From positions 4,672,001 through 4,736,000 of the forward strand of contig CBDCJH010000002.1 of NCBI GenBank assembly GCA_965217775.1: 64,000 bases of DNA, given 5' to 3'. A model generated the notes under the pieces. It worked only from the letters and a program-made list of their open reading frames with translations. It searched no databases and was not told the DNA's origin. The position numbers and the translations under genes are program-made. This stretch comes from Acidobacteriota bacterium. Its GTDB lineage: Bacteria > Acidobacteriota > UBA6911 > RPQK01 > JAJDTT01. Shown here one piece after another: positions 2,936 through 53,778 of the stretch. Position 1 is the first letter of the stretch, and the number at the start of each line of letters is the position of its first letter.

Positions 2936-3457
2936 CTATCTCCCGCCTCCGCGCAGGATCCTTTCCATCTCGCTCTGACGCCCTCCCCGGTTCGCCGGGG
3001 CGGCGTGGGGATCGGCGACCAGCTTGAGGCACCGGGTGGTGTAGAACTTGCCGTGGGGATCGTTCTTGTAGCGCACCCGGACCTCCAGCAGAAGCAGGTT
3101 CACCGGCGGGACGGCGATCTCCAGGGAGAGGCCCTGCCGGGGCGGTTCCCAGAAATCCACCGTGGCCGCGTAGTCGAACTCGTCGTCCAGATTCCCGTCC
3201 AATTGGATTGGGCCCACCAAGTCCTCGTCGCTGAGAAGCCGGTTCATGACATTCTCGGCATGTCCCATGGCGCGATGGGCCAGGTCGATCCGCCTGACGT
3301 TCTTCAGGCCTCCCGAGAAGGTCTGCATGGTGACGGCGACGCCCAAGCCCAGGATGGAGACCGCGACCAGGACCTCGAGGAGGGTGAAGCCCGCATGGGA
3401 GCGGCGGCGTGGAGCGGCGGCTTTCTTGCCGCCGAACGCGGAGCGTCCTTCCTTCAC
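2936..3457 (-). CDS. gspI: Minor pseudopilin GspI-like
   Basis: G|FTLLEVLVAV motif; GTG start at 3457 overlapping gspH TGA (GTGA). Confidence 0.8.
   Translation of the reverse strand: MKEGRSAFGGKKAAAPRRRSHAGFTLLEVLVAVSILGLGVAVTMQTFSGGLKNVRRIDLAHRAMGHAENVMNRLLSDEDLVGPIQLDGNLDDEFDYAATVDFWEPPRQGLSLEIAVPPVNLLLLEVRVRYKNDPHGKFYTTRCLKLVADPHAAPANRGGRQSEMERILRGGGR
3411..3433 (+). repeat. REP-like hairpin GGAGCGGCGGCTTTCTTGCCGCC inside gspI leader
   Basis: Identical to the reconstituted target of intron copy 1. Confidence 0.85.
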
Positions 3458-3963
3458 TTCGGTCTCCCTTGGGATTCGAGGATGGGCGACACCTTGGCCA
3501 GGCCGGTGACGGCGTCGGCCTTGACGTAGAGGCGTTTCTCCTGGCGGTTGACCAGTCCGATGGCGCCGCCGGAGCTGCGGCCATTGGAGTAGAAGTTGAC
3601 CCTCCACGGAAGCGGTGTGTCGTCGATGGTCTGGGGCACGATTCCGTCCGGCAGGTCCACGCTGCCGATCTCCTCTCCGAACTCGTTGGCCAGGACGTAG
3701 TAGCCCGCCCCCGTGTCGTCGCGGGTCACGATGATGCGGCGGACGGTGTGGCGTCCGATGGCTTCGAAACGGGCCCGCTTCATGCGCGTCGCCAGATCCC
3801 GGCAGGCGGCCTCGAGCTCCAGGCCCTGGAGGCCGGAGGTGAAGGAGGGCAGGATCAGCATGGTGGCCAGGCCCATGATGATCAGGAGGACCATGAGCTC
3901 GACCAGGGTGAAGCCGGTTTGGTTGTTCGATTTGACTCGCGTCATGTCAGGTTTCACGAGCAT
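3454..3963 (-). CDS. gspH: Minor pseudopilin GspH/FimT-like
   Basis: G|FTLVELMV motif; FYSNGRSSGG and DAVTG C-terminal motifs; start could be 3945. Confidence 0.85.
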   Translation of the reverse strand: MLVKPDMTRVKSNNQTGFTLVELMVLLIIMGLATMLILPSFTSGLQGLELEAACRDLATRMKRARFEAIGRHTVRRIIVTRDDTGAGYYVLANEFGEEIGSVDLPDGIVPQTIDDTPLPWRVNFYSNGRSSGGAIGLVNRQEKRLYVKADAVTGLAKVSPILESQGRPK

Positions 3964-3989
3964 GGTGGCGGGGAGGTCGGCGGCAAGAA

Positions 3990-5906
3990 GTCACGGTAGG
4001 AACGGCAGTTTCCTGCCGCCCCCCGCACAGATCCGGACGTGCCCGTTAAGGCATCCGGCTCCTACCTTGGGTGTGGACGGCCAGCGGAACCGCTGCCCCG
4101 GCCACGGGTGACGGATCTTCACGGATGGCCAGAGCAATTCCGTCATCCGTCGCAACCGTCCCCAGCTGAAGCGGTCGCGTTGGGACCGGCGGCGCAAGGC
4201 TCGCAGCCACCGCCGTTGCAGCAGATAGCAGAAACCTCGCAGCCAGCGCGTACTCCCCGGAACCGCAAAATAGTTCAGCCAGCCGTTCAGGACCCGGCTC
4301 AACCATTTCCCGACCTCCCAGTGATCCGCGTGCCGTTGTCTCCACAGCCTCTCCCCCAACCGTTGCAGGGTCCGGTTCATCCGTTTCGCGCTTGGCTTCC
4401 GCCCCAGCCGGAAGCGTCCCTTCCGGGTCTTCGCACAGTAGTGCGTGAACCCCAGAAAGTCGAACGTCTCCGGTTTCCGCTCCCCGCGTCGTCGCCGATC
4501 CGCTGCCGCAAATCGTCCGAACTCCACCAGTCGCGTCTTTTCCGGGTGCAGTTCCAGCCCGAACTCGGCGCACCGTTCCCCCAGGTCTCGGAGAAACCGT
4601 TTCGCGTCCGCCCGTCTCTGGAATCCGGCCACGAAGTCGTCCGCATATCGCACCAGGATCGCTTCGCCTTTCGGGACTCGTGGGCGCCACGTCCGATGGA
4701 ACCATTGGTCCAGCACGTAGTGCAGGTACACGTTGGCCATGACCGGCGAGACGTTGGCGCCCTGAGGCGTCCCTCTCCCCGTGTCCGACCAGGTCCCTTC
4801 TTCCATCACGCCGGCGTTCAGCCACTTGCGCAGCAGCCGCAGCACCCGCCGGTCTCCGATCCGCCGTTCCACGAACTGCATCAGGCAGTCCCGGTCGATC
4901 GCATCAAAGAACGTCCGAATGTCCGCGTCCACGATCCAGTTGACTTTCCGCCGTTCGATCCCGTAGGCCAGTGCATCCAGCGCGTCATGCGCCTTCCGTC
5001 CGGGCCGGAACCCGTAGCTGAGCCCGAGAAACTCCGCCTCGTAAATCGGCGTCAGGAGCTCGTCCACGACTGCCTTCTGGAGGATCTTGTCCTCCAGCGC
5101 GGCCACGCCGAGCGGTCGTGTCCTTCCATCCGGCTTGGGGATGTTCACCCGCCGGACGGGAGGCGCTCGGTACGCGCCCCGGTGCACGCGGCGATGCAGG
5201 TCCAGCAGTCGCTCTTCCAGCTTCGCCCCGTACTCCTCCCACCGGACCCCGTCGATTCCCGGCGCAGCATCCTTCCTCAGTCCGAGGTAGGCGCGGCGCA
5301 GGGCCTCCACAGTGATATGGTGCAGCAGCGCGGTCAGTCGCTCCTTGGGGTTTCTCGCGATCGCTCGCCGTATCCGGTCCACCGCTTGGGACACGCTCCC
5401 CCGACTCTGCGTCCGGCGCGTGCTTTGGCTCACCGAATTCCCCTTGGTTCCATCCCTTCGCTCCACCGGCTCCGCCGAGGGTCGCCCCTCTTTGTTCGCC
5501 CGCTTCATCGCTACTATGGATGAATCCGATTGCTTCGTTCCGTCCATCATGAGTTTCGGGTTACTCCTTTCTCATGCGACCCCGGGGCGACCCCCCGGCG
5601 TGAAATGAAGCCCTCCCAGGTCCCGGAACAAGATTTGCGTACGTGCCTGGGTTCTTTGACACCGCGGAGCCCGGCCGTCCCTCACCTGGGCGGTCCAGCC
5701 GGTGTTGCCTTCGACCGCGACTACAGTCTCGGCACTTCCGATCATGGAGCTTTCGATGCTCAATAGCCTGCCCATACGCACCGCTACCGACGCTTCGCCG
5801 ACACCCTCACGGGTGCCAACGCACGGCTCGCGGAGAAACGTGGATGGTTAGTCCTTCGTTTCGGCGGACTTCCACCGCCTATCTTGTGCCAGTTAGCCTG
5901 GCGCAC
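3990..5906 (-). mobile_element. Group II intron copy 1 (1917 bp, IIB-like, probably bacterial class E)
   Basis: 5' GTGCG at 5906, 3' ...CCTACCGTGAC at 3990; domain V AGGAGCCGGATGCC-TTAAC-GGGCACGTCCGGATCT (4063-4029); identity with copy 2 ends at these boundaries. Confidence 0.95.
3991..5550 (-). CDS. ltrA: Group II intron reverse transcriptase/maturase (no endonuclease domain)
   Basis: APGIDG, IPKPDGRTRPLG, SYGFRPGR, GTPQG, RYADDF, FDFLGF, maturase GWLNYF. Confidence 0.97.
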   Translation of the reverse strand: MMDGTKQSDSSIVAMKRANKEGRPSAEPVERRDGTKGNSVSQSTRRTQSRGSVSQAVDRIRRAIARNPKERLTALLHHITVEALRRAYLGLRKDAAPGIDGVRWEEYGAKLEERLLDLHRRVHRGAYRAPPVRRVNIPKPDGRTRPLGVAALEDKILQKAVVDELLTPIYEAEFLGLSYGFRPGRKAHDALDALAYGIERRKVNWIVDADIRTFFDAIDRDCLMQFVERRIGDRRVLRLLRKWLNAGVMEEGTWSDTGRGTPQGANVSPVMANVYLHYVLDQWFHRTWRPRVPKGEAILVRYADDFVAGFQRRADAKRFLRDLGERCAEFGLELHPEKTRLVEFGRFAAADRRRRGERKPETFDFLGFTHYCAKTRKGRFRLGRKPSAKRMNRTLQRLGERLWRQRHADHWEVGKWLSRVLNGWLNYFAVPGSTRWLRGFCYLLQRRWLRALRRRSQRDRFSWGRLRRMTELLWPSVKIRHPWPGQRFRWPSTPKVGAGCLNGHVRICAGGGRKLPFLP

Positions 5907-5920
5907 AGCCGCCGCTCCCC

Positions 5921-6376
5921 CTACCAGGAGGCCACGTCGGCGCTGTCGGATTCGCCTCCTTCCACGCCGTCGGCGCCCCAGCTCCAGAGGTCGTAGTCGC
6001 CGTACTGTCCCGGGGCGCGGTACTGGTACTCACGGCCCCAGGGGTCGTTGGGCAGGGTCCGCTTGTCCAGGTAGGGACCGCTCCAGTTGTGGAGCCCGGC
6101 GTTTTCCAACAAGCTGGTGAGCCCCTCCGCCGTGTTGGGGTAGCGGCCCACGTCGAAACGAAAAAGACCCAGGGCTCCTTCGAACTGGTCGATCTGGAGC
6201 TTGGCGATCTCGCTCTTTCCCCGGCCCAGGCGTTCCATCACCTTGGGACCCACCACCGTGGCCAGAAGTCCCAGGATCACCAGCACCACGATGAGCTCGA
6301 TCAGGGAAAACCCTCGATCGCGTTTCCTTTCCTCCGTTTCCACGGCCTTGGCGGCCTTGTCGACTGTCCTGCTCAC
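5921..6376 (-). CDS. gspG: Major pseudopilin GspG
   Basis: G|FSLIELIVV, GRYPNTAEGL, DPWGREYQY, GADGVEGG. Confidence 0.95.
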   Translation of the reverse strand: MSRTVDKAAKAVETEERKRDRGFSLIELIVVLVILGLLATVVGPKVMERLGRGKSEIAKLQIDQFEGALGLFRFDVGRYPNTAEGLTSLLENAGLHNWSGPYLDKRTLPNDPWGREYQYRAPGQYGDYDLWSWGADGVEGGESDSADVASW

Positions 6377-12956: not shown

Positions 12957-13123
12957 GGAGCGGCGACTTTCTTGTCGCCGAGCAGGGGGGCAGGGGGGAC
13001 GGAGTCCCCACTTCACACTTTCCCCCCTCTACACGTTCCGGCCACCGAATCGCTTAGCGGCATGGAAGAGCAGGCGGCAAGAAAGCCGCCTGTCCCAGTG
13101 GGCGACAAGAAAGTCGCCCCTCC
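12957..13123. repeat. REPIN-like element (inverted REP doublet with conserved spacer) plus extra REP
   Basis: 12957-13095 homologous to 21194-21318+23236-23247 and 38167-38304; additional REP 13101-13123. Confidence 0.88.
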
Positions 13124-20691: not shown

Positions 20692-21144
20692 ATGAACGCC
20701 TCGTTCGACACTCTCGCGGCCGCCCGCGAGCTGGAATCCGGTGGCTTCGACGACAAGCAAGCTGCAGTCTTGCTGAAGGTCATGCGCATGAGTGGAGAGT
20801 CCACCGTCACGAAATCCGATCTCGCCCTCGTGAAATCGGATCTCTCCCGCATGGATGAGTCGTTGCGGCGAGAGATCGTCGCAACCAGAGTTGAACTCCG
20901 GTCCTCGATTGCCGAGTTGCGCACGGAAATTGCATCCACTGCGGGCGAGGTGCGTGCAGAAATTGCATCTATTACGGTCGAGTTGCGTGCAGAAATTGCA
21001 TCTACTACGGTCGAGTTGCGCGGAGAAATCGCCACGGCCAAGGCGGAGCTCCGAGCGGACATGAATGCCATGGCCAACAAGATGCTCCTCTCTCAGTTGG
21101 CCGTTGCCGGACTCCTCTTTGCCGCGATCAAGACCTTCACGTGA
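20692..21144 (+). CDS. DUF1640/CCDC90-like coiled-coil membrane protein
   Basis: FDTLAAARELESGGF...QA head, TKSDL neck, 11-aa repeats, C-terminal TM helix. Confidence 0.85.
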   Translation: MNASFDTLAAARELESGGFDDKQAAVLLKVMRMSGESTVTKSDLALVKSDLSRMDESLRREIVATRVELRSSIAELRTEIASTAGEVRAEIASITVELRAEIASTTVELRGEIATAKAELRADMNAMANKMLLSQLAVAGLLFAAIKTFT

Positions 21145-21168: not shown

Positions 21169-21318
21169 GGAGCGGCGGTTTCCAGCCGCCGAAGGAGCGG
21201 CGGTTTCTAGCCGCCGATCAGGGGGGCAGGGGGGACGGAGTCCCCACTGTACACTTTCCCCCTCAATACTTTCCGGTCACCGAATCGCGTAGCAAGATAG
21301 AAGAGCAGGCGACAAGAA
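21169..21318. repeat. REP cluster and REPIN-like element (left part, interrupted by intron copy 2)
   Basis: Two tandem GGAGCGGCGGTTTCYAGCCGCC, conserved spacer, then half REP GGCGACAAGAA. Confidence 0.85.
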
Positions 21319-23235
21319 GTCACGGTAGGAACGGCAGTTTCCTGCCGCCCCCCGCACAGATCCGGACGTGCCCGTTAAGGCATCCGGCTCCTACCTTGGG
21401 TGTGGACGGCCAGCGGAACCGCTGCCCCGGCCACGGGTGACGGATCTTCACGGATGGCCAGAGCAATTCCGTCATCCGTCGCAACCGTCCCCAGCTGAAG
21501 CGGTCGCGTTGGGACCGGCGGCGCAAGGCTCGCAGCCACCGCCGTTGCAGCAGATAGCAGAAACCTCGCAGCCAGCGCGTACTCCCCGGAACCGCAAAAT
21601 AGTTCAGCCAGCCGTTCAGGACCCGGCTCAACCATTTCCCGACCTCCCAGTGATCCGCGTGCCGTTGTCTCCACAGCCTCTCCCCCAACCGTTGCAGGGT
21701 CCGGTTCATCCGTTTCGCGCTTGGCTTCCGCCCCAGCCGGAAGCGTCCCTTCCGGGTCTTCGCACAGTAGTGCGTGAACCCCAGAAAGTCGAACGTCTCC
21801 GGTTTCCGCTCCCCGCGTCGTCGCCGATCCGCTGCCGCAAATCGTCCGAACTCCACCAGTCGCGTCTTTTCCGGGTGCAGTTCCAGCCCGAACTCGGCGC
21901 ACCGTTCCCCCAGGTCTCGGAGAAACCGTTTCGCGTCCGCCCGTCTCTGGAATCCGGCCACGAAGTCGTCCGCATATCGCACCAGGATCGCTTCGCCTTT
22001 CGGGACTCGTGGGCGCCACGTCCGATGGAACCATTGGTCCAGCACGTAGTGCAGGTACACGTTGGCCATGACCGGCGAGACGTTGGCGCCCTGAGGCGTC
22101 CCTCTCCCCGTGTCCGACCAGGTCCCTTCTTCCATCACGCCGGCGTTCAGCCACTTGCGCAGCAGCCGCAGCACCCGCCGGTCTCCGATCCGCCGTTCCA
22201 CGAACTGCATCAGGCAGTCCCGGTCGATCGCATCAAAGAACGTCCGAATGTCCGCGTCCACGATCCAGTTGACTTTCCGCCGTTCGATCCCGTAGGCCAG
22301 TGCATCCAGCGCGTCATGCGCCTTCCGTCCGGGCCGGAACCCGTAGCTGAGCCCGAGAAACTCCGCCTCGTAAATCGGCGTCAGGAGCTCGTCCACGACT
22401 GCCTTCTGGAGGATCTTGTCCTCCAGCGCGGCCACGCCGAGCGGTCGTGTCCTTCCATCCGGCTTGGGGATGTTCACCCGCCGGACGGGAGGCGCTCGGT
22501 ACGCGCCCCGGTGCACGCGGCGATGCAGGTCCAGCAGTCGCTCTTCCAGCTTCGCCCCGTACTCCTCCCACCGGACCCCGTCGATTCCCGGCGCAGCATC
22601 CTTCCTCAGTCCGAGGTAGGCGCGGCGCAGGGCCTCCACAGTGATATGGTGCAGCAGCGCGGTCAGTCGCTCCTTGGGGTTTCTCGCGATCGCTCGCCGT
22701 ATCCGGTCCACCGCTTGGGACACGCTCCCCCGACTCTGCGTCCGGCGCGTGCTTTGGCTCACCGAATTCCCCTTGGTTCCATCCCTTCGCTCCACCGGCT
22801 CCGCCGAGGGTCGCCCCTCTTTGTTCGCCCGCTTCATCGCTACTATGGATGAATCCGATTGCTTCGTTCCGTCCATCATGAGTTTCGGGTTACTCCTTTC
22901 TCATGCGACCCCGGGGCGACCCCCCGGCGTGAAATGAAGCCCTCCCAGGTCCCGGAACAAGATTTGCGTACGTGCCTGGGTTCTTTGACACCGCGGAGCC
23001 CGGCCGTCCCTCACCTGGGCGGTCCAGCCGGTGTTGCCTTCGACCGCGACTACAGTCTCGGCACTTCCGATCATGGAGCTTTCGATGCTCAATAGCCTGC
23101 CCATACGCACCGCTACCGACGCTTCGCCGACACCCTCACGGGTGCCAACGCACGGCTCGCGGAGAAACGTGGATGGTTAGTCCTTCGTTTCGGCGGACTT
23201 CCACCGCCTATCTTGTGCCAGTTAGCCTGGCGCAC
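21319..23235 (-). mobile_element. Group II intron copy 2 (1917 bp)
   Basis: Same termini and identical internal ORF translations as copy 1 (offset 17329). Confidence 0.95.
21320..22879 (-). CDS. ltrA: Group II intron reverse transcriptase/maturase
   Basis: Identical 519-aa protein to 3991-5550. Confidence 0.97.
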   Translation of the reverse strand: MMDGTKQSDSSIVAMKRANKEGRPSAEPVERRDGTKGNSVSQSTRRTQSRGSVSQAVDRIRRAIARNPKERLTALLHHITVEALRRAYLGLRKDAAPGIDGVRWEEYGAKLEERLLDLHRRVHRGAYRAPPVRRVNIPKPDGRTRPLGVAALEDKILQKAVVDELLTPIYEAEFLGLSYGFRPGRKAHDALDALAYGIERRKVNWIVDADIRTFFDAIDRDCLMQFVERRIGDRRVLRLLRKWLNAGVMEEGTWSDTGRGTPQGANVSPVMANVYLHYVLDQWFHRTWRPRVPKGEAILVRYADDFVAGFQRRADAKRFLRDLGERCAEFGLELHPEKTRLVEFGRFAAADRRRRGERKPETFDFLGFTHYCAKTRKGRFRLGRKPSAKRMNRTLQRLGERLWRQRHADHWEVGKWLSRVLNGWLNYFAVPGSTRWLRGFCYLLQRRWLRALRRRSQRDRFSWGRLRRMTELLWPSVKIRHPWPGQRFRWPSTPKVGAGCLNGHVRICAGGGRKLPFLP

Positions 23236-24411
23236 AGTCGCCTCTCCCAGTGGGCGACTGGAAATCGCCCCTCCGGGCGATTGGAAATTGCCCGTCCCGC
23301 AGACTTCCCGGATCATGCGGCGATAGATCTCCACCGCTGCTTCGAGTTGCTCGATGGAGATCCACTCTCCCACCGTGTGGGCCTGGGCGATGTTGCCGGG
23401 ACCCAGGACCACCAATTCGTCGACCTGGTCCTTGATCCAGATGGAGTCGGTACCGTAGGGGACGGTCTTGGGCTTCCGTCCGCCGCCGGCCCGGGATGCC
23501 AGTTGCACCAGGTCGGCATCGGGAGGAACGTAGAAAGGACCCTTGTACGCGGTCTCCACCTCCAGGCCGTGGGCTCTGGCCCTGCCGGCGACGATCTCCA
23601 TCAGTTCCCGGCTCTGGTCGCCGGGCATGGGCCGGAAGCCGACTTGGCAGGTGCACCTGGCCGCGCTCACGTTGGGGCGGGTGCCGCCGTCCTCGAAGAC
23701 CATGTTGAAACCGTTGGTGGGCGGATCGAAGTCCGGGTTCCGGTAGCGGGGATCCTTTTTCACATCCTTGGCCAGCTCAGCCATCTCGGCCAGGAAAGGA
23801 GCGATCAGAAAATTGGCCGAGGTGCCGAGATCGGTGCTGGTGTGGGCCGCTCTGCCCCGGGCCGTGGCCATGACCAGGACTCCGCCCTTGTGGGCATAGA
23901 CCGGCCACAACTCGGTAGGCTCGGCCACTACAGCGTAGGTCGGCCGTGCTTCGTTGAAGAACCGGGACTCCCGGACCACCTGCTTGGCCCCGCCCCCGCC
24001 CACTTCCTCGTCGGCGGTGGCCATGACCAGGACCGGATGCTTCAGGTCCCCTGAGTCCACCGTCGCGGCCGCAGCCATGGTGGCCGCCAGAGGTCCCTTC
24101 ATGTCGCAGGATCCCCTTCCGGAAATCTTTCCGTCCCCGGCCACCGGGTCGTAGGGGTCCCAGTCCTCTTCCTGTCCCGGCACCGTGTCGGTGTGGGAGA
24201 AGAAGGCCAACCCCCCCGTTCCCGATCCCTTCCGGCCGACGATGCTGACCTTGGTCTCCCCGTTTTCGTCCACGTAGTCGAGGCGCTCGGTTTCGAAGCC
24301 GTGCTCTCGAAACCGCTCCTCCACCAGGTCGGAGATCAGAGCGTTGCTCCAGCGGCTGACGGATTTGATGGCGACGAGATCCCGGGTCAGGGAAACAGGG
24401 TCGAGTTGCAT
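23113..24411 (-). CDS. argE: M20 family deacylase (acetylornithine deacetylase ArgE-like); 3' end runs through REPs into the intron
   Basis: SHTDTVP, GRGSCDMKG, DEEVG, AEPT, AHTVGEWI motifs. Confidence 0.8.
   Translation of the reverse strand: MQLDPVSLTRDLVAIKSVSRWSNALISDLVEERFREHGFETERLDYVDENGETKVSIVGRKGSGTGGLAFFSHTDTVPGQEEDWDPYDPVAGDGKISGRGSCDMKGPLAATMAAAATVDSGDLKHPVLVMATADEEVGGGGAKQVVRESRFFNEARPTYAVVAEPTELWPVYAHKGGVLVMATARGRAAHTSTDLGTSANFLIAPFLAEMAELAKDVKKDPRYRNPDFDPPTNGFNMVFEDGGTRPNVSAARCTCQVGFRPMPGDQSRELMEIVAGRARAHGLEVETAYKGPFYVPPDADLVQLASRAGGGRKPKTVPYGTDSIWIKDQVDELVVLGPGNIAQAHTVGEWISIEQLEAAVEIYRRMIREVCGTGNFQSPGGAISSRPLGEATVRQANWHKIGGGSPPKRRTNHPRFSASRALAPVRVSAKRR
23236..23293 (-). repeat. 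Remainder of interrupted REP plus two more REP hairpins, within the argE-like ORF
   Basis: AGTCGCCTCTCC, GGGCGACTGGAAATCGCCCCTCC, GGGCGATTGGAAATTGCCC. Confidence 0.8.
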
Positions 24412-31269: not shown

Positions 31270-31590
31270 TCAAGCGGCGTTTCCGCGTCCATTGCGGACC
31301 AAGAAATCCCGCAGCACATCGAGAGTTCCCTCGATCCGACCCAGACGGTCGCGGAGATTTCCAAACTGGCGGTCCACATGGTCGCGGAGAGTTCCGTTCT
31401 GGTGATCCGCATGGTCGCGGAGAGCTCCGACCTGGTGATCCGTATGGTTGCGGAGATCTCCGATCTGCTGATCCACACTGTCGCGGAAATCCCGTAACTC
31501 GCCGCGCACGGAACGGATGGATCGGTCCAGGTAGAGGAATCCCAAAATGAGAACCGCCGAAGTGATCCACTGGGCGAGTTCAGATGGCAT
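31270..31590 (-). CDS. Small membrane-anchored coiled-coil protein with 11-aa repeats
   Basis: GAGG upstream of ATG 31590; N-terminal hydrophobic segment; five 33-bp repeats; RLGRIEG end motif. Confidence 0.7.
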   Translation of the reverse strand: MPSELAQWITSAVLILGFLYLDRSIRSVRGELRDFRDSVDQQIGDLRNHTDHQVGALRDHADHQNGTLRDHVDRQFGNLRDRLGRIEGTLDVLRDFLVRNGRGNAA

Positions 31591-38166: not shown

Positions 38167-38385
38167 GGAGGTGCGGCTTTCTTGCCGCCGACAGGGGGGC
38201 AGGGGGGACGGAGTCCCCACTTTACACTTTCCCCCCTCGACACTCTCCGGCCACCGAATCGCATAGCAACACGGAAGAGCAGGCGGCAAGAAAGTCGCAC
38301 CTCCCACTGGGCGACTGGAAATCGCCCTTCCTGTGGGCGACAGGGATGTCGCCCCTCCTTTGGGCGACAGGGATGTCGCCCCTCC
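38167..38385. repeat. REPIN-like element plus three additional REP hairpins
   Basis: 38167-38304 doublet; then GGCGACTGGAAATCGCC and two GGGCGACAGGGATGTCGCCCCTCC. Confidence 0.88.
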
Positions 38386-52731: not shown

Positions 52732-52884
52732 GGAGGGGCGATTTCCAGTCGCCCAGTCTTTCTTTGTTCAAGCCGGAGTTCGGCGGCTAGAAACCGCCGC
52801 TCCTTTTCGGCGGCTGGAAACCGCCGCTCCTTTTCGGCGGCTAGAAACCGCCGCTCCTTTCCGGCGGCTGGAAACCGCCGCTCC
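52732..52884. repeat. REP cluster: one REP plus four tandem 27-bp REP units in opposite orientation
   Basis: CGGCGGCTRGAAACCGCCGCTCC units at 52781, 52808, 52835, 52862. Confidence 0.9.
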
Positions 52885-53778
52885 TTACACCGCGGGTGCG
52901 TAATAACCGTTGCGGTGCCTGATGTTCAGCCCCTTGTCCCGGAACAGTTTGACCTCGATCTCCCTGAACTTGCCGTCATGGGTACGGTTTCTGGGAACGT
53001 ACGTCAGGCTGTATTGGGACCTGAGCTCTTCGTTGACGAGATCGAAGGTCTGCTGCAGTCCGTCGGCGGTGTAGGGAAAGAAAGCTCGTCCGCCCGTCTC
53101 GCGGGAGAGATTCCTCAGGATCTTCTCCCCTTTCTTCTGCTGATCGGCTCCGAAGCGGCTGGTGCCGATGCTGTAGACGGTCACCCCGGAGACGTGGATA
53201 CCCCGCAGGACGTCCTCCATCGTGTGCTGGCTGTCCTGGTCGACCCCGTCGGAGATGACCACGATGGCCTGGCGGGTGTCGGGATCGGTCATCTTCTGGG
53301 AGGAGACACTCATCAACGCGTCGAACAGCTTGGTTCCGCCTCCCGCCTTCAGTTCGCGGATCGCCTTGGCGATGGATCTGGGATTGGACGTGAAGTCGTG
53401 CAGGAGGGAGACGCCCGAATCGAACTCCACCAGGAGCACTTGATCCTGGGGGCGGAGGATGGAATGGACGAATCGGGTAGCGGCCCGCTTTTCGAACTCC
53501 AGCTTCAAGCGGACGCTGGAGCTGGTGTCGATGAGCAGACCGATACGCAAGGGCAGGGCGGTCTCGTGTCTGAAATTGGTGATGAACTGGCGCCGTCCGT
53601 CCTCGTAGATCTGGAACCGGTCCTTCTGGAGATTGGTGACGAACCGGTTCTTTTGATCGGTGACCGTCACCAGGACGTTGACGGCTTCGACCTCGACCCG
53701 AATCGGCGTCTGCTGAAAAGCGCACAACATCCAGAGGCCGATCCAGAGCAGGGCGCGGGCAGGACGCATCCGGACCAA
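52885..53778 (-). CDS. VWA domain protein (Acidobacterial VWFA type)
   Basis: DTSSSV MIDAS, GGTKLFDA, SDGVD, ELRSQYSLTY, HRNGYYA. Confidence 0.9.
   Translation of the reverse strand: MVRMRPARALLWIGLWMLCAFQQTPIRVEVEAVNVLVTVTDQKNRFVTNLQKDRFQIYEDGRRQFITNFRHETALPLRIGLLIDTSSSVRLKLEFEKRAATRFVHSILRPQDQVLLVEFDSGVSLLHDFTSNPRSIAKAIRELKAGGGTKLFDALMSVSSQKMTDPDTRQAIVVISDGVDQDSQHTMEDVLRGIHVSGVTVYSIGTSRFGADQQKKGEKILRNLSRETGGRAFFPYTADGLQQTFDLVNEELRSQYSLTYVPRNRTHDGKFREIEVKLFRDKGLNIRHRNGYYAPAV

Follow-up and report, generated by a model that had tools for sequence, protein, structure and literature searches.

How does a group II intron come to sit, copy after copy, in the loop of a small dispersed hairpin? 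The question is raised by a 64,000-nt stretch of an Acidobacteriota genome (assembly GCA_965217775.1, contig CBDCJH010000002.1, positions 4,672,001 to 4,736,000; hereafter the window), in which two identical intron copies each split a hairpin resembling a repetitive extragenic palindrome (REP). A sequence-only reading of the window had proposed that two exon-binding sites (EBS1 and EBS2) in domain I of the intron pair with the REP and direct the intron to it. We find that the element is very probably a mobile bacterial group II intron with a IIB-like layout of exon-binding sites, homing into the 5' half of the REP-like hairpin.

Insertion into the REP loop

The two copies in the window are the following:

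3990-5906, minus strand: group II intron copy 1, 1917 nt, starting with GTGCG and ending with GAC, with RF02005 matching domain I (D1) and RF00029 matching domains V and VI (D5/D6)
21319-23235, minus strand: group II intron copy 2, 100% identical to copy 1 (genome BLAST and sequence)

The consensus of the target is GGAGN-GGCGRC-T/TTCTT-GYCGCC, a foot followed by a hairpin with an asymmetric loop (here and below, a slash marks the insertion point). A strict pattern, GGAGN-GGCGRY-loop-RYCGCC, whose counts are lower bounds, finds at least 436 oriented copies of the intact, empty hairpin in the genome and 20 in the window. The rejoined exons of copy 1 read GGCGGC-TTTCTT-GCCGCC and are identical to empty copies, so that the intron lies between the first and the second T of the loop, without duplication of the target. 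Genome BLAST recovers 16 intron copies or remnants in total: ten full-length copies with 98.9-100% identity, one internally deleted copy, four copies without the open reading frame (ORF; ∼640-755 nt) and a remnant of 67 nt. The REP loop is split as GGAGN-GGCGRY-T/T(T)C...-GYCGCC by 14 of the 16. These insertions all point the same way with respect to the asymmetric loop and the foot, and each is flanked, outside its REP, by unique DNA.

One full copy, F1, occupies a site that is not a REP and has only GGAGA-T-GCGGCT in common with it. As only the 5' exon motif is shared, the choice of target seems to depend mainly on the 5' exon. A diverged ORF-less copy (C2:3224157) sits in the loop of another hairpin, GGGCACCC/CTTGT GGGTGCCC. 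A second large REP family built around this target was considered and rejected, as the genome holds only 3 loosely similar hairpins.

Exon-binding sites and their pairing with the REP

The guide sequences and the exon sequences facing them are located as follows:

5717-5722, minus strand: EBS1 AGUCGC of copy 1, in the loop capping a GACU/GGUC stem (RF02005 alignment, covariation)
5746-5750, minus strand: EBS2 GCUCC of copy 1, within the 13 unpaired nt that follow CGAAA (RF02005 alignment, covariation)
5907-5912, minus strand: intron-binding site 1 (IBS1) GCGGCU of copy 1, five bases of the REP 5' arm and the first loop base
5914-5918, minus strand: intron-binding site 2 (IBS2) GGAGC of copy 1, the REP foot (exon sequence)
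3979-3989, minus strand: start of the 3' exon of copy 1, TTCTTGCCGCC, the remainder of the REP loop and the 3' arm
23046-23051, minus strand: EBS1 AGUCGC of copy 2 (RF02005 alignment, sequence)
23075-23079, minus strand: EBS2 GCUCC of copy 2 (RF02005 alignment, sequence)
23236-23241, minus strand: IBS1 GCGACU of copy 2 (exon sequence)
23243-23247, minus strand: IBS2 GGAGA of copy 2, forming four pairs with EBS2
21308-21318, minus strand: start of the 3' exon of copy 2, TTCTTGTCGCC (exon sequence)

The covariance model RF02005 (group-II-D1D4-6) matches both copies over its full length (model positions 1-225) with 166.7 bits (E = 2.6e-48; gathering score 49). It leaves AGUCGC at positions 3-8 of an 8-nt loop closed by the GACU/GGUC stem, and GCUCC unpaired. 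The stem-loop that the sequence-only reading had proposed at the EBS1 position is thus recovered by the model, and its coordinates for AGUCGC (5722-5717 and 23051-23046) and GCUCC (5750-5746) are exact.

The 5' exon of copy 1 ends with GGAGC-G-GCGGCT, which gives five Watson-Crick pairs and one G-U pair with EBS1 and five pairs with EBS2. The 5' exon of copy 2, ending with GGAGA-G-GCGACT, gives six Watson-Crick pairs with EBS1 and four pairs with EBS2. A one-base spacer separates IBS2 from IBS1, with AGUCGC facing GCGRCU and GCUCC facing GGAG(N). The exon sequences hence agree with the proposal that EBS1 pairs perfectly at copy 2 and with a single wobble at copy 1. The candidate EBS2, which had been matched to a foot reading GGAGC, stands as regards its column in the alignment, its covariation and the foot of copy 1, but the foot of copy 2 is GGAGA and pairs at four positions.

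Covariation within the genome and among relatives

RF02005 matched 19 of 20 submitted loci from relatives. The 12 distinct EBS1 types pair with the last six exon bases at 70 of 72 positions. Permuted exons average 34.5 pairs and never exceed 61, none of 100000 permutations having reached 70. We aligned 26 sequences, in which the EBS1-IBS1 helix is 96.2% paired and the EBS2-IBS2 helix 77.7%. Pairing is found in 90.4% of cells and falls to 30-44% if the partner is displaced by 1-3 columns. Changes on both sides occur in all 11 pairs of the two helices, and in five of five when EBS2 is taken alone; none of 500 shuffles gave a covariation score as high as that observed.

Individual cases show the same compensation. 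In the diverged ORF-less copy at C2:3224157 EBS1 is GGGUGC, EBS2 is CCUAC and the exon ends with GUAGG-G-GCACCC: compensatory changes preserve the two helices, and the one-base spacer is unchanged. The relative L010 has an EBS2 CAUGC facing the exon sequence GCAUG, and L032 and L026 differ as UGGUC with GGCCA against UGUUC with GAAAA. The position of EBS1 is proven by these compensatory changes in this genome and in relatives, and the covariation of guide and exon supports base pairing as the mechanism of REP targeting.

Occupancy of REP types

Occupancy was counted across this genome by the IBS1-like hexamer of each REP, with two tandemly duplicated ORF-less copies counted once:

GCGACT: 8 occupied, 85 empty
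GCGGCT: 4 occupied, 74 empty
GCGATT: 1 occupied, 105 empty
GCGGTT: 0 occupied, 149 empty

The order of occupancy follows the number of wobbles, and RCT-type hexamers differ from RTT-type ones genome-wide (Fisher p = 1.2e-4). In the window alone, two of seven or eight RCT-type REPs are occupied, leaving five or six empty, versus none of 14 RTT-type REPs, numbers that are too few for significance. REPs with GGCGGT or GGCGAT arms had been described from the window as unoccupied. Genome-wide they are depleted, but not excluded: of 106 GCGATT sites one is filled, by the copy F6 in a REP with a GGCGAT arm, and the locus L013 in the sister genome G002 is an AGUCGC intron in a GGCGGT-arm REP.

By a crude classification, the 184 genomic sites with GGAGNNGCGRCT comprise 13 with an intron, 98 empty REPs and 73 empty sites outside REPs. 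REPs are favoured over other sites with the motif, a contrast confounded by selection against insertions into genes.

EBS1 variants and REP subfamilies in sister genomes

If the pairing directs the intron, EBS1 and the REP arm should vary together in relatives, and they do: EBS1 variants sit in matching REP variants, AAUCGC in GGCGAT-arm, AGUCCC in GGGGAC-arm and AACCCC in GGGGGT-arm REPs. The sister genome G001 holds 316 matches to the REP GGGGGTTTTCCTACCCCC, versus 0 for the reversed control. Its intron with EBS1 AACCCC is inserted at the end of GGAGTGGGGGTT, its six AGUCCC copies at the end of GGAGGGGGGACT, and its AAUCGC copies at the end of GGAGGGGCGATT and in near variants of that site. 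EBS2 is constantly GCUCC in these variants, and the foot constantly GGAG. REPs of the GGCGRC-TTTCTT type number 106 in G002, where the AGUCGC intron occupies them; G001 has 25 matches to this type, none of them exact. A single AGUCCC copy in G002 lies in GGGGGACT/TTTAGTCCCCC.

The genome G003 holds 83 REPs of the GGCGRC type and three copies of a sister intron (L010-L012) with EBS1 GGAUGC and EBS2 CAUGC. The 5' flanks of these three copies are identical over 32 nt and their 3' flanks differ at one base. These near-identical flanks, with a hairpin AGATGC-ATGG-GCATCT directly before the intron, suggest that the sister intron lies inside a larger repeated element rather than in a REP.

Replication strand and intron-less allele

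By cumulative GC skew, the replication origin lies at about 5.00 Mb and the terminus at about 1.69 Mb. The lagging-strand template holds 15 of the 16 intron copies (p = 5e-4) and all ten full copies, whereas empty REPs are without strand bias (222 against 208). The sole copy on the leading-strand template is the ORF-less copy mini4, about 0.2 Mb from the skew terminus. The copy orientations in G001 and G002 fall into two arcs in each genome.

Among the sequencing runs containing this sequence, which include sponge metatranscriptomes, three also contain the locus without the intron. Contigs of runs X1, X2 and X7 skip the intron: position 3989 is joined to 5919 or 5922, and the REP between them is intact. 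The depths in X2 are 46 at the joint, 46 in the gspG-side flank, 39-54 in the other flank and ∼500 in the intron; intron depth in RNA runs cannot serve as a measure of expression. The intact REP at the joints and the high depth of the intron indicate that related populations hold this REP empty, as an intron-less allele, and carry the intron elsewhere. An interpretation of the joined contigs as spliced RNA was rejected, since they also occur in runs of unrecorded kind and their depth equals that of the gspG-side flank.

Weighing of the evidence

Several observations weigh against targeting by these pairings or restrict it. The evidence for splicing and retrohoming is indirect, namely the ten copies with 98.9-100% identity and the intron-less allele of the window site, and present-day activity is inferred; the data from RNA runs are contigs, which cannot separate spliced RNA from an intron-less allele. 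IBS1 forms part of a G+C-rich hairpin arm, and in single-stranded DNA that arm would compete with EBS1. A free-energy fold of an isolated 115-nt piece makes the EBS1 stem two pairs longer, so that only AGUC is looped, and pairs part of GCUCC. This fold was set aside in favour of covariation, because its z-score of only -1.5 is not significant and its extra pairs are conserved in no relative. The fifth EBS2 pair, with the last base of the foot, is missing in 16 of the 26 aligned sequences, which leaves GGAG with CUCC as the dependable EBS2 contact. In four distant relatives (L015, L020, L029 and L030) EBS2 pairs poorly at fixed columns; judged by eye, that of L020 would pair with the register shifted by four bases. 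When the base that opens the 3' exon (T, C, A or G) was compared by eye with the variable columns of domain I, no column stood out convincingly as EBS3. A IIA-type delta pairing is unlikely, since U is found immediately 5' of EBS1 irrespective of that exon base. REP arm type is also correlated with loop type (TTTCTT against TTCCA), and contacts of the protein with the 3' exon could add to the discrimination between REPs.

Three other explanations can be set against pairing of both sites. The shape of the hairpin might be part of the signal, the REP stem-loop being recognised in extruded form on single-stranded DNA, in the way that class C introns recognise terminators and attC sites, and the pairing fixing only the exact position. 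In favour of this, REP sites with the 12-nt motif are occupied in 12 cases and empty in 98, versus 1 and ∼73 for sites outside REPs, by the same crude classification; the diverged ORF-less copy likewise lies in a hairpin loop, and the L010 intron directly follows its hairpin. However, the sites outside REPs are mostly probably in genes, where insertions are selected out, F1 has no hairpin at its site, and the junctions of two distant relatives, L015 and L018, lack one. Across distant relatives in general the junctions have no consistent hairpin, and several 3' ends could not be placed. IBS1 lies in the stem, so that pairing needs the stem to melt, and EBS1 tracks the arm sequence, as pairing predicts. 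A role for hairpin shape is, on this evidence, unlikely. It is more than doubtful that EBS1-IBS1 alone is used, with the match of GCUCC to GGAG a by-product of the constant foot. GCUCC is indeed kept by all REP-resident variants, the site of the copy F9 (GGACA) is occupied with only three EBS2 pairs, and EBS2-IBS2 is described as dispensable for self-splicing in vitro of the related IIE and IIF introns (PMC3753933), which again tells against a need for both sites. Against it, three independent retargeted lineages changed EBS2 and exon together (CCUAC/GUAGG, CAUGC/GCAUG, and UGGUC/GGCCA against UGUUC/GAAAA), both-sided changes cover all five EBS2 pairs, and the non-REP site of F1 retains GGAG at the correct distance.

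The remaining explanation dispenses with homing into REPs: recombination or the REP transposase would have transported the intron between the halves of REPs. The genome does contain a gene similar to those of REP-associated tyrosine transposases, and a REP lies 5 nt beyond it. Carriage is nonetheless scarcely credible in view of junctions that are base-exact at GTGCG and GAC, a rejoined REP with the loop length of empty REPs, unique flanks beyond the REP, the uniform orientation of the 14 REP-resident copies relative to loop and foot, and a replication-strand bias that REPs do not share. Homing by pairing of EBS1 and EBS2 with the 5' exon is the explanation we retain.

Domains, encoded protein and genomic context

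The remaining features of the intron are:

5650-5872, minus strand: domain I of copy 1 (RF02005 match)
22979-23201, minus strand: domain I of copy 2 (RF02005 match)
3990-4063, minus strand: domains V and VI of copy 1 (RF00029 match ending exactly at the REP junction, the last intron base)
3991-5550, minus strand: intron-encoded protein of 519 aa, reverse transcriptase/maturase (ORF list, RVT_1, TIGR04416)

The RF00029 match on D5/D6 of copy 1 scores 37.5 bits (E = 3e-6), slightly under the gathering score of 40, which the relatives L010 and L014 exceed with 41.0 and 40.9 bits; their intron proteins are 90-91% identical to the one studied here. The intron ends, GTGCG and GAC, agree with the GUGYG and AY expected of group II introns. 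The ribozyme is ∼640 nt in size. In the ORF-less copy mini4 (C2:1903834-1904588) an A+T-rich insert of ∼110 nt with an inverted repeat at its edges lies within a hairpin of domain I.

The encoded protein scores 355.4 bits against TIGR04416 (cut-off 300), the alignment stopping at residue 455 of 519, and its sole Pfam match is RVT_1 (121.5 bits). Searches with Pfam and TIGR04416 found no endonuclease (H-N-H) domain in the 519 aa. The ORF continues past domain IV through D5 and D6 and ends 1 nt short of the 3' splice site; the overlapping tail occupies 3991-4063 in copy 1 and 21320-21392 in copy 2. The tblastn matches of relatives at ∼50% identity likewise extend to residue 519. With the intron protein as query, relatives are found in metagenome-assembled genomes of Acidobacteriota and in some of other phyla.

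Copy 1 lies between two pseudopilin genes (ORF list, Pfam families): the gene for protein G of the type II secretion system (T2SS; 5921-6376) and a GspH-like gene (3454-3963), all in the same orientation. At the non-REP site of F1 (C2:3929720-3931636; flanks L059 and L060) a single reading frame spans the junction, ...LDIQEMR / L / TESGFDLVFTKPVD..., and F1 may interrupt a gene in sense orientation, which would require splicing. Pfam has no family for either of the exon-encoded fragments.

Y1_Tnp has three matches in the genome. The transposase-like gene mentioned above, a 223-aa ORF (L034:1117-1788) about 6 kb before the window, has an HVH motif and scores 78.3 bits against NF047646 (cut-off 80); the REP that begins 5 nt after its stop codon has a GGCGAT arm. 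Other repeats of the window include four empty GGCGGT-arm REPs in tandem with 27-nt spacing (52775-52886) and a composite repeat of ∼130 nt in three copies (12968-13112, 21204-21318 and 38177-38321), with a G-rich block (GGGGGGCAGGGGGGACGGAGTCCCC) inside it and a REP at its end; intron copy 2 lies in the REP of the middle copy. Tandem 33-nt repeats of three and five units occur in apparent coding sequence at 20913-21011 and 31341-31505.

Proposed mechanism of insertion

In the mechanism that we propose, EBS2 GCUCC pairs with the REP foot GGAG(C) and, after the one-base spacer, EBS1 AGUCGC with GCGRCU, that is with the 5' arm and the first base of the loop. Reverse splicing then proceeds between the first and the second T of the loop and leaves no target duplication. 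We infer that insertion takes place on the single-stranded lagging-strand template at the replication fork, with the nascent DNA strand as primer, because a protein without endonuclease and the strand bias both fit the endonuclease-minus (En-minus) pathway. En-minus introns are described as taking their primer from the leading or the lagging strand at the fork (PMC4424553). The hundreds of dispersed REPs would offer many harmless landing sites, and point changes in EBS1 would retarget daughter lineages to other REP subfamilies. The ORF-less copies are presumably mobilised in trans by the protein of full copies.

Relation to known introns and significance

The intron resembles RmInt1 of Sinorhizobium meliloti (class D) in lacking an endonuclease and in pairing both EBS1 and EBS2 with the 5' exon. 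It shares the bias to the lagging-strand template with RmInt1-type introns and, like RmInt1, homes into repeated non-essential DNA. RmInt1 targets an insertion sequence, whereas the target here is a hairpin repeat of ∼25 nt present in hundreds of copies. By the description in PMC3753933, the size of the ribozyme and its layout also fit IIE and IIF introns; the literature listing yielded no mapping of Rfam families to intron classes.

As described for the Thermosynechococcus elongatus family (Mohr, Ghanem and Lambowitz 2010, PMC2882425), the introns here occur in many copies at non-essential sites, have diverged in target specificity, and include ORF-less derivatives presumed to depend on the proteins of other copies. 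According to the same source, that family has found its new sites chiefly within other introns or insertion elements, with heat helping to open the strands. Unlike in that family, each EBS1 variant here matches a subfamily of one REP superfamily, and the hosts are Acidobacteriota. With IIC introns the intron shares the association with DNA hairpins and the lack of an endonuclease, and IIC introns are also reported to be biased to the lagging-strand template (PMC8919778, citing Robart 2007). However, IIC introns insert after a hairpin and are described as lacking EBS2 and part of EBS1 (PMC3753933), while the present intron has a 6-nt EBS1 and an EBS2, both covarying with the exon, pairs with the stem itself and is inserted within the loop. 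The features of class C are thus absent in these respects. REPs are landing sites for other mobile elements too: insertion sequences target them, and a group II intron of Pseudomonas putida KT2440 is listed as REP-associated in two of nine copies (Tobes and Pareja 2006, PMC1525189). The table row for that intron, its one mention in the paper, contains neither a pairing mechanism nor covariation; in the present genome REPs hold 14 of the 16 copies, a choice that the RNA guide explains.

The mechanism is ordinary retrohoming. What appears undescribed is the target class, a high-copy REP loop read through its own stem, together with a series of EBS1 variants matching REP subfamilies and the recurrence of this picture in three genomes; the literature searched, which leaves most subscription journals uncovered, contains no account of EBS pairing as the means of REP targeting. 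A 2015 review names three target specificities of bacterial introns, namely homing sites, terminators and attC (PMC4424553). We entertain, as a tentative and rather doubtful extension, that this IIB-like lineage is a specialised REP parasite whose EBS1 variants co-diversify with the REP subfamilies, inside single genomes as well as from one genome to another, and in whose target capture the hairpin extruded at the fork takes an active part: EBS1 has the same sequence as the 3' arm of the REP and would displace that arm. If true, REPs would constitute a fourth natural target specificity beside those three, and the splitting of the hairpin would disable the REP for its own transposase.

With a high-copy harmless repeat as homing site, a retroelement can accumulate ten copies or more in a compact bacterial genome and still spare the genes. 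The natural series of EBS1 sequences with matching targets (AGUCGC, AAUCGC, AGUCCC and AACCCC), which differ by one or two bases, offers a route to the targeting rules of small introns without an endonuclease. These results also connect two selfish elements, the intron on one side and the REP with its transposase on the other.

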